Positions 27,660 to 30,659 of a stretch of 64,000 nucleotides of DNA are shown piece after piece (positions within the stretch are counted from its first letter, which is position 1; the number at the start of each line of letters is the position of its first letter). The notes under the pieces are model-generated. The model saw only the letters and a list, made by a program, of their open reading frames with translations, was not told the origin of the DNA and did no database searches. The stretch is from Anaerolineae bacterium (GTDB taxonomy: Bacteria; Chloroflexota; Anaerolineae; VGOG01): contig JBAWAP010000384.1 in NCBI GenBank assembly GCA_049589355.1, forward strand, positions 2,349 through 66,348. Reading direction: 5' to 3'. A program made the translations under genes and the position numbers.

Positions 27660-30659
27660 CTAACTTGCGATGGGTTGTGAGGCAAGCAAACCCTTCAGAA
27701 ACTGCCCCGTGTAACTCCCTGCCGCCTGCGCCACTGCCTCCGGCGTCCCCTGGGCGACGATGTAGCCGCCAGCGTCGCCGCCCTCCGGTCCCAGGTCCAC
27801 GATCCAGTCGGCGGTCTTGATCACGTCCAGGTTGTGCTCGATGACGATGACCGTGTTGCCGGCGTCGGTCAGGCGGTGGAGCACGTCCAGCAGCTTCTGG
27901 ATGTCGGCGAAGTGCAAGCCGGTGGTGGGCTCGTCGAGGATGTAGACGGTGTCGCCGGTGGACACGCGGGCCAACTCCTTGGCCAGCTTGACCCGCTGCG
28001 CCTCGCCACCGGAGAGCGTGGTGGCGCTTTGGCCCAGTTTGACGTAGCCCAACCCCACGTCCACCAGTGTCTGCAGGATGCGCTTCACCTGGGGCACATT
28101 GCCGAAGAACTCCAGCGCCTCTTCCACATCTATGTCCAACACCTCGGCGATGTTCTTGCCCTTGTAGCGGATCTGCAGCGTCTCGCGGTTGAAGCGCGTG
28201 CCCTTGCACACATTGCACGTCACCCACACGTCGGGCAGGAAGTGCATCTCCACCTTTCTCTGACCATGACCCTGGCAGGCCTCGCAACGCCCACCTTTGA
28301 CGTTGAAGCTGAACCGACCCGCCTTGTAGCCGCGCGCCTTGGCCTCGGGTGTCAGGGCGAACAGGTCACGGATGTGGTTCATCACCTGGACGTAGGTGGC
28401 CGGGTTGGAGCGGGGCGTCCGTCCGATGGGGTCCTGGGTGATGCTGATCACCTTGTCCACCTGGTCCAGACCCTCAATGCGGTCATGCTGGCCCGCTTTC
28501 TGGGCCGCGTTGTGCAGTGCGTTCGTCAGCGCAGGGTGAAGCGTCTGCGCCACCAGCGACGACTTGCCGCTGCCCGAGACCCCTGTGACGCAGGTGAACA
28601 ATCCCAGAGGGAAGCGCACCTCCAGGTCCTTGAGGTTGTTCTGCCGTGCGCCGACGACTGCGAGCCACTTGTTGTTGGTCGGCCGCCGCTGGCCATTGGG
28701 CGGCGTCACCTGCAACTCACCGCGCAGGTAGCGTCCGGTCAGTGAGTCTGGATGGTCAATGATCGCCTGCAGCGGGCCGGCGGCCACCACCCAGCCGCCG
28801 TTGATGCCTGCCCCCGGGCCCAGGTCCACGATCCAGTCGGCGGTGCGCATCGTCTCCGCGTCGTGCTCGATGACGACGACCGTGTTGCCCATGTCGCGCA
28901 GATGCTCCAGCGTATCCAGCAGGCGGCGGTTATCGCGGGCGTGCAGGCCGATGCTGGGCTCGTCCAGGATGTAGAGCACCCCTACCAATCCGCAGCCGAT
29001 CTGGCTGGCCAGCCGGATGCGCTGCCCCTCGCCGCCGGAAAGCGTGGGCGCAGAGCGGTCGAGCGTCAGGTAGTGCAATCCGACGTTAAGCATAAACTGG
29101 AGGCGGTCACGGATTTCTTTCAACACCTCCTCGGCGATGGTGAACTGTTCGGGGGATAGAAGGGATTGGGTATTGGATATTCCCGGCCACAGACCCTCGA
29201 CCCACTCTAGCGCCTCCCCGATGCTCAAGGCCGTGACCTGGTTGATGGTCTTGCTGCCGATGGTCACCGCTGCACTTTCGGGCCGCAGCCGCTGGCCGTG
29301 ACAGGTGGGGCAAGTCTGCTGGCTCATGAATTTGGTGTACCACCGGCGCATGCCCTCCGATTTTGTCTGCCGGTAGCGGCGCTGGGTCGCGTTGACCGTC
29401 CCCTCGTAGTTCCATTCTCCTTGCCACGTGGCCCGCGCGCTTTCCGACTCCCAGATCACTCTGACACCGCCGTACAAAATGGCTTGTTGGCACTCCCTGG
29501 AGAGTTCCCGCCAAGGTGTATCCAGATCTTGCCCGAAATGCCCCGCGATTTGCTGCACGACCTTGTACGTGCCGCTGGACTTCTTCTTACCCAGTTCGCC
29601 CCAGGTGCGGACGCCGCCCTCGTGCAGAGTCTTATCTGGGTCAACGAACTGGTCGGGATCGAACTCGACCTTGGTGCCCAGGCCATTGCACTCAGGGCAC
29701 ATGCCCATGGGCGAGTTGAAGCTGAACATGGCGGGCGTCAGTTCGGGGAAGCTCACCCCGCACACCGGGCAGGCGTTCTGCTCAGAAAGCAGCCACTCGT
29801 CGCCGTTGCCTCGGTCAATGATCACCAGGCCATCGCCTGCCCGCAAGGCGGTCTCCACGGAGTCGGTGAGACGAGAGCGAAATCCAATGGGTAACGAGTC
29901 AACGAGCAACAAGGTCTCCTCATCACCCATTACCTGGTTACTCATTGCCTGATTACTCATTACCTCATCACTCGTTAACTCGCTCCTCCCTGGAACCACC
30001 AACCGATCCACCACCAACTCAATGTTGTGCTTCTTTTTCTTGTCCAGTTTGATCTTCTCATCCAGTCCTCGCACCTCGCCATCCACTCGCACGCGGGAGA
30101 AGCCGTCGGCGCGAGCCTGGGCAAACACGTCCTGAAATGCACCTTTGCGGTTACGGGCCAGCGGGGCCAACACCTGGAGGTGCGTACCGTCCGGCAGCGC
30201 GGCCACCTGCTCCACAATCTCCTGCGCCGACTGGGCGTGGACCTCGCGACCACACTGCGGGCAGTGCGGCGTGCCCGCGCGGGCGAAGAGCACCCGCAGG
30301 TAGTCGTAGATCTCCGTCACCGTGCCTACCGTCGAGCGGGGGTTCTTGCTCACCGCCTTTTGCTCGATGGCAATCGCCGGGCTGAGCCCGCCAATGAAGT
30401 CCACCTTCGGCTTCTCCATCTGGGCGATGAACTGGCGGGCATAGGCGGAAAGCGACTCGACGTAGCGGCGCTGGCCCTCGGCGTAGAGGGTGTCGAAGGC
30501 CAGCGACGACTTGCCGCTGCCGGAGACGCCAGTGATCACCACCAGCTTGAAGCGCGGCAGCCTCACGTCAATGTTCTTCAGATTGTGTTCCTTGGCTCCA
30601 CGGATGAGAATCTCGTCAGGGTACATGCTCTGGAACAACCTCATAACGAAGCCACACAC
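27660..30659 (-). CDS. uvrA: Excinuclease ABC subunit A paralog (full-length UvrA-like, two ABC modules)
   Basis: 999 aa; [14 protein letters not shown]-terminus, two Walker A (GVSGSGKSS), zinc fingers, ABC signatures. Carries an in-frame palindromic-element insertion (...[11 protein letters not shown]...). Confidence 0.9.
29889..29984. repeat. Palindromic GTAACGAGTCAA-family element, copy A, inserted in-frame in the uvrA paralog
   Basis: GGTAACGAGTCAACGAG ... CACTCGTTAACTCGC inverted arms. Two further copies at 40494-40584 and 48581-48650. Confidence 0.55.

Follow-up and report, generated by a model that had tools for sequence, protein, structure and literature searches.

Inverted arrays of short units form a dispersed hairpin repeat family in Anaerolineae, with copies between genes and in frame within uvrA

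The stretch of DNA that we have analysed, referred to as the window, comprises 64,000 nucleotides of contig JBAWAP010000384.1 (positions 2,349 to 66,348, assembly GCA_049589355.1) from an Anaerolineae bacterium, and carries three hairpin-forming repeats: copy A is located inside uvrA, copy B is located over the 3' end of a HIT-family gene that is followed by the gene of a major facilitator superfamily (MFS) transporter, and copy C is located between the genes of an Fe-alcohol dehydrogenase (Fe-ADH) and an aldehyde:ferredoxin oxidoreductase (AOR), both of which are on the minus strand (Table 1). A previous reading of the same DNA, made from the letters only and referred to as the sequence-only reading, had described these repeats as a palindromic family that is inserted in frame into genes. 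We have found all three at the positions where that reading had placed them, and we have confirmed that they are copies of a dispersed Anaerolineae repeat family, which is located between genes and sometimes in frame within essential genes, e.g. uvrA.

Table 1. Positions in the window of the array hairpins and of the genes that host them.
Feature	Position	Strand	Description
uvrA	27660..30626	-	canonical class I; 988 aa from the start of the NCBI record (P0001)
Copy A	29886..29990	-	105-nt (35-codon) in-frame array hairpin inside uvrA
HIT-family gene	39984..40517	+	probable true start at 40011 (MKRLWSPWR); stop displaced into copy B
Copy B	40491..40587	+	array hairpin over the 3' end of the HIT gene; MSNESTS codons and stop in its first arm
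Copy C	48583..48646	.	64-nt array hairpin between the Fe-ADH stop (48652) and the ribosome-binding site/start of the AOR gene (48564)
Additional array hairpin	63134..63191	.	other unit family (CGATTTT/CGGTTTC heptamers), between two family-2 glycosyltransferase genes

Results

Architecture of the element

The element had been described as a repeat of 70-95 bp; what we find are, in place of a fixed sequence, two inverted arrays of 7-8-nt units, whose order and number are variable. The forward unit is (N)NAAYGAG, with degenerate variants that include GTAACGAG, TCAACGAG, GCAATGAG, TAATGAG and TGATGAG, among others; each arm contains 2-10 units, the usual centre is GAGG-(0-6 nt)-CCTC, and the ends read (G)GTAACGAG ... 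CTCGTTAC(C). The size of the elements ranges from 50 to 140 bp, with an overall inverted symmetry. The spacing of the units is 7 or 8 nt in 197 of the 244 intervals (8 nt in 134, 7 nt in 63) and 15/16 nt in 34.

The arrays are polar: in all 27 hairpins, the CTCRTY array follows the RAYGAG array, while the reverse-then-forward arrangement, which would be a different structure on both strands, was looked for and occurs in none. One-armed arrays are common, often in leaders that adjoin the ribosome-binding site and the start codon (loci L085, L092, L053 and L117). A conserved promoter-like TTGAAA-17-TAAAAT precedes, at L023 5780-5960 and at L092 300-500, a leader that consists almost wholly of units, seven forward units in L092 and four forward units with a short reverse arm in L023; both leaders end with GAGAGGAGG-N8-ATG.

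With respect to internal periodicity, Tandem Repeats Finder reports period 15 (3.3 copies) for copy A, whose arm that is 5' in gene orientation is remodelled into 15-nt (8+7) repeats, and period 8/16 in both arms of copy B. As single strands, copy B folds into a strong hairpin (-21 kcal/mol, z -4.95), and copies C (z -2.3) and A (z -1.8), which are imperfect palindromes, into weaker ones.

Copies are mostly located at gene junctions, just 3' of stop codons or in 5' leaders by ribosome-binding sites, and more rarely within coding genes. An Rfam scan of the whole window at gathering thresholds returned a single match, the tRNA at 37738-37809, and no family that covers the elements. An intrinsic (Rho-independent) terminator was considered and rejected: a terminator scan called none of copies A, B and C, and a T run follows none of them.

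The positions raise the possibility that the arrays are selected cis-elements, acting on the stability or translation of mRNA as RNA hairpins or as arrayed protein-binding sites, with the genic copies being accidental. Many copies adjoin ribosome-binding sites and start codons or sit on stop codons, some are position-conserved between metagenome-assembled genomes (MAGs), the units contain TAA/TGA, ATG and GAGG, and there is a parallel in the TAACTGA heptamers upstream of start codons in Beggiatoaceae, for which a regulatory role has been proposed (PMC4679880). We nevertheless find this explanation improbable: the copies occur in both orientations with respect to the downstream gene; some of them separate genes that are convergent or unrelated, and five different protein-coding genes contain copies; copy C is missing from the ortholog of the same operon in locus L086; an unrelated repeat can stand at the orthologous site (L002 vs L026); and the symmetry of the arms is not maintained.

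Recurrence within and beyond the window

The 17-mer core of the element, GGTAACGAGTCAAYGAG, has six matches in the window with at most three mismatches, on both strands, all within copies A, B and C; the expectation from shuffled sequence is 0.20, and six matches were reached in 0 of 100 shuffles. Outside the window, array hairpins that contain the core recur in Anaerolineae/Chloroflexota MAGs, with many contigs matched in the same MAG.

A 16-mer, GTAAYGAGTCAAYGAG, was scanned across one genome per species (596 Gb) and was found in at least 108 loci. By our own estimate, a 16-mer with two Y positions has roughly a thousand chance matches in 596 Gb, and because of this the lone matches in Shewanella, Paenibacillus and others are expected to be noise. 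Among the matches listed, about half of the loci come from a few multi-match Anaerolineae/Chloroflexota MAGs (DAOUDK01, JAUWOY01, CAZVCJ01, CAYRNM01, CAYMKL01 and VGOG01), and it is only in those MAGs that the 16-mer lies inside runs of units that are followed by their complement. A link with phages was rejected, since none of the 16 exact 16-mer matches in viral contigs has the array context.

Hairpins were then counted with a detector that requires at least two RAYGAG units at 7-9-nt spacing, followed within 45 nt by CTCRTY units, and at least five units in total. Among the matches listed, the Chloroflexota loci contain 21 hairpins in 377 kb (0.56 per 10 kb) and the loci from other phyla that share the 16-mer contain one in 409 kb (0.02 per 10 kb); these loci were picked for containing the core, which biases both densities, and the three hairpins in the 64 kb of the window (0.47 per 10 kb) provide the sole unbiased figure. 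In full-text literature searches, whose coverage is incomplete, we found no account of such repeats in Anaerolineae or Chloroflexi.

Copy C: a filled and an empty site

Copy C occupies 64 of the 87 nt between the Fe-ADH stop and the AOR start, so that the claim of an exactly filled intergenic gap does not hold. Synteny with the window, at about 86% identity, is seen for two loci of MAG CAZVCJ01, L040 and L086, of which L086 provides a copy C site without the insertion: the window reads ..CTCCTTGATTGG, followed by the element (TTAACGAG...CTCATCA) and by ACTCCCTAG, while L086 reads ..CTCCTCTCCTGGC-ACCCCCTAG. The flanks of the empty site are clean, the difference corresponds to the whole hairpin, and no unit-like seed is present there. 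In this pair, copy C is a lineage-specific insertion into an operon spacer of about 23 nt.

At this one junction, no target-site duplication was found (..GATTGG, 64 nt, ACTCCCTAG vs ..CCTGGC-ACCCCCTAG), and the label "MITE-like" that had been attached to the element is not borne out; the junctions of copies A and B are uninformative on duplication, with empty alleles that are unit-like or have a different loop. A classical miniature inverted-repeat transposable element (MITE), i.e. a deletion derivative of an insertion sequence (IS) that ends in terminal inverted repeats, is mobilised by a DDE transposase and has target-site duplications on its flanks, would agree with the size and the overall inverted symmetry of the copies. 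In view of the missing duplication at the clean junction, of termini and internal sequence that are not fixed, of arms that vary in length, of a unit order and number that differ in every copy, and of the absence of a related or parent IS among the window genes scanned (20 genes around the copies), we consider such an origin very improbable and have rejected MITE membership.

Copy A and the junction in UvrA

The open reading frame (ORF) that holds copy A runs from 27660 to 30659 on the minus strand (999 codons), and its product is 100% identical to the NCBI excinuclease ABC subunit UvrA (P0001) of an Anaerolineae MAG. The gene had been called a uvrA paralog, which is unsupported: the Pfam domains UvrA_inter and UvrA_DNA-bind are those of canonical class I UvrA. 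The frame is intact across copy A, as had been noted; in place of the roughly 30 added residues that had been counted, the insert has 35 codons, which is a net gain of about 27 over the 8-residue loop of insert-free orthologs.

In a structure alignment, ...VVDRLVVP ends at residue 233 of 9gxk_A and GFRSRLTDS resumes at residue 234, with 35 residues (GRSELTS...DSLPI) left unmatched. In an AlphaFold model made with 80 homologs, residues 215-241 (P0001 numbering) are coil with a predicted local distance difference test score (pLDDT) below 50, located between a strand (200-210) and a helix (247-263). Copy A adds a loop of 35 residues, predicted to be disordered, within the UvrB-binding region of UvrA.

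The comparison of the 120 closest ortholog clusters (77-100% identity; not given for one) reveals a short loop of the P-AEDGGRDG-F type at this junction in 80 clusters, a loop shorter than this in 4, and at least six extra residues in 36. The insert type of the window (SNE/SNQ...LLVDSLP) is found in P0001-P0005, at 86-100% identity, with differing unit numbers in the orthologs at 86-91%, while the next closest orthologs, P0006-P0015 (about 85% identity), do not have it and carry the PAEDGGRDGF loop. Orthologs without the insertion therefore exist, and in solved UvrA nothing lies at the junction.

These comparisons bear on the reading of the UvrA segment as a native linker, with the similarity among the three DNA sequences being a coincidence or an assembly artefact. 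The length of this UvrA loop does vary in the clade; against the reading stand the six core matches observed for 0.2 expected, the insert-free orthologs at 85% identity, the junction residues that are adjacent in solved structures, and the presence of the copy A insert in independent assemblies from ENA, JGI and NCBI. We have rejected the native linker, and find the reading as a whole scarcely credible. The two outcomes that the sequence-only reading had named as refuting it, an element that is not repeated elsewhere in the genome and orthologs that carry the same residues, were both looked for, and what was found is a core that recurs and orthologs without the insert; its overall view of a repeat family with in-frame insertion is supported.

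At the same junction, other lineages carry other periodic or palindromic inserts (VNEVNE.../SSTPFTPS, VDKEQVDKE.../LSTNPLSTDS, NLPTFQPSNLPT and TQPPSHPA), so that some of the 36 inserted clusters contain unrelated unit families; for the VNE, VDKEQ, NLPTFQPS and ACCCAACC families, no further copies were found in their own 18-20-kb loci. Among the loci collected, the uvrA gene of L040 has the element at the same position, 15 nt shorter and with other units. The inserts of L040 and L110 are near-perfect NNAAYGAG hairpins, whose VVDR-to-RLTDS segments fold at -72.6 and -91.7 kcal/mol, respectively (RNA parameters); those of L111 and L112 are hairpins of other units, and that of L114 consists purely of ACCCARCC octamers, nine in tandem. 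The uvrA gene of L109 is insert-free, and its site reads GAGGGCGAGGAACGCGATGGG.

The copies of the window, L040 and L110 have a common centre, GAGGA(A/G)ACCT(C/T)G, and common outer edges, and contain 7/3, 5/5 and 10/7 units, respectively; this shows that the uvrA copies have gained and lost units in situ without leaving the frame. A step of 15 nt (an 8-mer plus a 7-mer) recurs and yields pentapeptide repeats, e.g. ATSNE and AMSNQ, with EATSN occurring three times in L110. In a rough neighbour-joining tree of UvrA, the insert families are scattered among insert-free lineages, which may reflect either several independent gains at a site that tolerates them or a single old insert that has since turned over and been lost in places. 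Both copy A and copy B are old, are shared with the sister MAG at about 86% nucleotide identity and have changed in situ; copy A is probably an old insertion, common to related lineages.

Additional variable segments are found in UvrA. At positions 3313-3397 of L040, which correspond to 29138-29183 of the window, a second in-frame insert is located (ESANQRTSESANLPLADSTYKPANLQTCP), composed of the octamers CAGCGAAT and ACTTGCAA; the window has only ISNTQSLLS there. A third variable loop (IDRGDG-x-WLLSE) is seen in several orthologs, where P0067 contains a 46-residue repeat (..ADKGGGQDARGPVGRASADRGGGQDARGPV..).

The neighbours of uvrA in the window are genes of a glyoxalase, a RibD_C protein and a WYL/PafC-type regulator. 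The regulator (WYL/WCX/HTH, PafBC-like; 31426-32388) adjoins uvrA and is likewise located upstream of it in L110, L111 and L114; the genes around the pair (glyoxalase, DinB_2, GyrI-like, AlkZ-like and DUF3795) look like a DNA-damage neighbourhood.

Copy B and the end of the HIT gene

The HIT gene had been said to receive its last ~8 codons and its stop from copy B; the contribution of the stop stands, and the codons are seven (MSNESTS, 40494-40514), followed by TGA at 40515-40517. The closest orthologs (83-91% identity), which are 161 aa long, end with ...KLKAAWEESE and lack MSNESTS. The window reads GAA ATG AGT AAT GAG TCA ACG AGT TGA, while the orthologs read GAG TAA CGA.. or GAG TGA.., with the stop being part of the first unit; a difference of 1 nt has moved the HIT stop seven codons into copy B. 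A similar read-through is seen in some other HIT orthologs (...EQRGNE and ...EEQSNE).

At the HIT-MFS junction of L115, L116 and L117, only 2-4 forward units are located after the stop and before the MFS start. Because these loci carry only the forward units, the array at the junction was one-armed until the lineage of the window and CAZVCJ01 gained the second arm and another 35 nt.

L086 has copy B as well, with the TAA of the first unit as the HIT stop; there, a composite repeat of about 270 nt, unrelated to the element, interrupts the centre of the hairpin. This interruption suggests that array hairpins are targets for other mobile repeats. The composite repeat itself (L086 ~895-1165) is bounded by GTCATTGCGAG...CTCGCAATGAC and contains CGAAGCAATC/GATTGCTTCG hairpins.

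Other genic copies and other unit families

In-frame copies are found in three more genes: an HdrA-like gene (L033: RQRGNELMRQRGDEVTSQRGETLVTSSLVNSFT), a large membrane-protein gene (L060) and the gene of a GltD-like oxidoreductase (L117). One frame of the units contains TAA or TGA; half of the intergenic copies (9 of 18) have no open frame among the six, which holds for 19% of shuffles with matched composition, and the genic copies are open in one to three frames. The element is therefore not built for translation, and inside genes only the compatible variants, free of stops and preserving the frame, survive. Shared elements in L022 and L082, and likewise in L018 and L044 (two contigs of one MAG), differ in the unit count of a single arm.

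The same architecture is also seen with other families of 7-8-nt units, in the same MAGs and in the window. TTGGAAG units occur in L025 and L117, and in frame in L060; CGTSAAA units form a hairpin in L117 and arrays in L086, L023 and the window (4789-4815); CGRTTTY units form the additional hairpin of the window (Table 1), which is near-perfect (-21 kcal/mol, z -4.89) and fills the gap between its two neighbouring genes, with no second copy found in the window and the collected loci; and the second insert in the uvrA gene of L040, described above, has its own pair of octamers. The CGTSAAA arrays and hairpins are located at 11872-11913 and 13185-13280 of L117, at 3824-3844 of L086, and in L023. 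The array at 4789-4815 of the window is one-armed (GTCAAAC GTCAAAC GAGAAAC) and lies just upstream of an ORF; near it, a 43-nt direct repeat (4529-4571 and 4729-4771, 72% identity) is found, with each copy ending in GGAGCGATGA.

Different repeat families can also occupy one site: at orthologous intergenic positions, L002 carries an NNAAYGAG hairpin (409-495) and L026 an unrelated G+C-rich palindrome (~1411-1483; CCCTCTCCC...GGGAGAGGG).

Other features of the window

The window has further features besides the array hairpins. The tRNA gene at 37738-37809 (65 bits) has a near-consensus promoter, TTGACT-17-TATAAT (37694-37722), and a strong terminator-like hairpin (37818-37850), with a divergent, perfect-consensus promoter at 37515-37487. 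A segment of about 3.5 kb (43233-46829) that is not in the syntenic L086 contains a gene of a ferredoxin/amine-oxidase-like flavoprotein, a 230-aa ORF and a 455-aa ATPase; the 230-aa ORF, which has no Pfam match, and the AAA_21/AAA_15 ATPase (AbiEii/OLD-like) look like a small defence-type cassette.

Discussion

Mobile repeats or growth in place

The explanation that we favour, and hold to be rather probable, is that of a dispersed, hairpin-forming repeat family across a lineage of Anaerolineae, presumed to be selfish and non-autonomous. As selfish DNA without machinery of their own, the elements may spread by a hairpin or single-strand route, either through an HUH transposase of the kind associated with repetitive extragenic palindromes (REPs), namely the REP-associated tyrosine transposase (RAYT), or through template switching with snap-back synthesis. 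The pair of sites of copy C shows the whole hairpin inserted with no target-site duplication, and once they have arrived the arrays gain and lose units in place, often on one arm. Elements would be tolerated where a hairpin or a floppy loop is harmless, and the protection of mRNA 3' ends and the occlusion of ribosome-binding sites are possible by-products.

Several points weigh against this explanation. The evidence for a true insertion comes from one clean pair of filled and empty sites, that of copy C. The empty sites of copies A (L109) and B (L115-L117) resemble units, so that growth in place is conceivable for both copies. Units vary in order and number from copy to copy, with no master sequence of the kind that classical MITEs have. 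A tblastn search with the IS200 and IS608 TnpA proteins, which is a weak test, returned nothing at E<0.3 in the window and about 1 Mb of loci; in a Pfam scan, none of the 20 genes that surround the copies has a domain of a transposase or reverse transcriptase; and no transposase, RAYT or reverse transcriptase is linked to the elements. Lastly, the densities given above are affected by the choice of loci, and all of the data are metagenome assemblies.

The main rival is growth in place, according to which the arrays are immobile: they would arise by slippage from unit-like seeds, the second arm would be added by intrastrand template switching (quasi-palindrome correction), and a bias of mutation or of the polymerase throughout the lineage would account for the unit sequence being shared. 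This explanation fits copies A and B, whose empty sites hold unit-like sequence. In its favour are also the unequal unit counts of orthologous copies, which often concern one arm, the tandem triplication of 15 nt within copy A and the frequency of one-armed arrays; moreover, heptanucleotide repeats are the commonest class of long simple sequence repeats in bacteria (PMC4679880). It does not fit copy C, which stands complete, with 64 nt and both arms, in a spacer whose counterpart in L086 is free of unit-like seeds, nor the recurrence of one degenerate 8-mer family with a GAGG..CCTC centre at dozens of unrelated loci in several MAGs, which slippage does not predict; the 27:0 polarity would need an additional assumption. 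On balance, we regard growth in place as unlikely.

Somewhat more speculative, and in our opinion rather unlikely, is a repeat-generating process of the Anaerolineae that is specific for the architecture and not for the sequence, and that sets down several unit families as polar hairpins at the same permissive sites. The enzyme could, for example, be a polymerase or reverse transcriptase, extending a 3' end by short units made on a template and duplicating these after a snap-back, or alternatively an HUH enzyme that targets hairpins. This possibility draws on several unrelated unit families, among them NNAAYGAG, TTGGAAG, CGTSAAA and CGRTTTY, together with the one UvrA codon junction that is extended in 36 of the 120 clusters. 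If it were true, new peptide segments would be continually seeded in essential proteins.

Implications

The in-frame colonisation of essential genes by palindromes is best known from Rickettsia; here, it occurs in free-living Chloroflexota and with a structurally different element. Less ordinary are the fact that the polarity is 27:0, that one architecture is common to several unit families, and that a single codon junction in UvrA has been used repeatedly. This junction offers natural experiments, being found without an insert, with the present insert at varied lengths, and with other unit families, so that the way in which selfish repeats create protein segments, and proteins tolerate them, becomes testable; the same applies to the machinery by which short tandem units are built into polar hairpins with no duplication of the target. 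In practice, the arrays shift stops (the HIT tail) and lengthen conserved proteins, and they will disturb gene calling, alignment and assembly in Anaerolineae MAGs.

Comparison with known systems

The element resembles the dispersed repeats known as Rickettsia palindromic elements (RPEs), REPs and short tandemly repeated repetitive (STRR) sequences, and is not a member of the REP or MITE families, and in all probability not of the RPEs; no mobilising enzyme was found in the sequence searched.

RPEs are dispersed short palindromic repeats that are found repeatedly in frame in unrelated housekeeping genes, where the peptide is tolerated (PMC10969869). The comparison with RPEs that the sequence-only reading had drawn is apt as a functional analogy, since the Anaerolineae repeat is likewise palindromic and in frame in conserved genes (UvrA, HdrA-like, GltD-like and membrane-protein genes). 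The phylum is a different one, however, and the sequence is unrelated: RPEs form families of about 100-150 bp, each with a conserved peptide, whereas the arrays of 7-8-nt units in Anaerolineae are variable and have neither a set length nor a set peptide, and half of their intergenic copies are closed in six frames. Given an Anaerolineae host and an element whose sequence and peptide are not fixed, membership in the RPE family is implausible.

REPs and their paired forms (REPINs) are small extragenic palindromes at gene ends, without target-site duplication, with a strict orientation of their halves, and are hot spots of insertion (PMC3733652, PMC3116915); the stem-loop of a REP, 20-40 bp long, has a conserved tetranucleotide, GTAG or CGTC, at one of its ends (PMC3733652). 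REPs are mobilised by RAYTs, which are Y1 HUH transposases, and the cognate RAYT gene is typically flanked by the repeats. The Anaerolineae elements are similarly extragenic, have a fixed polarity, lack a duplication and host other insertions. Unlike REPs, they carry no GTAG or CGTC tag on their ends, on which ground we have rejected REP membership, and their arms are arrays of 2-10 units instead of a single 20-40-bp stem.

Among smaller repeats, the small dispersed repeats (SDRs) of Nostoc are said to have been described by Elhai and colleagues in 2008 as very small mobile repeats in hairpin or heptamer contexts, both intergenic and genic, without target duplications; they are reportedly defined sequences of 21-27 nt that are inserted into such contexts, and one SDR family can reportedly replace another at the same site. 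In the Anaerolineae arrays, no distinct core beyond the units was recognised. Heptanucleotide STRR sequences of cyanobacteria were reportedly described by Mazel and colleagues in 1990.

A parallel in unit length is offered by these heptamers and by the TAACTGA repeats. The latter are found in Beggiatoaceae, cyanobacteria and Bacteroidetes as almost exclusively direct repeats, in arrays of a stop-rich unit of the 7-nt class that are mostly intergenic, often upstream of starts or over the preceding stop, and occasionally stop-free in ORFs (PMC4679880). The Anaerolineae unit is (N)NAAYGAG, and not CCCCAGT, TTGGTCA, CAACAGT or TAACTGA, and a copy is typically an inverted pair of fixed polarity, in which 7 and 8 nt are mixed and for which several unit families exist. 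Like the STRR and TAACTGA repeats, the Anaerolineae repeats are dispersed tandem arrays of the ~7-nt class, located mainly at gene junctions, and TAACTGA itself resembles the TAACGAG unit.

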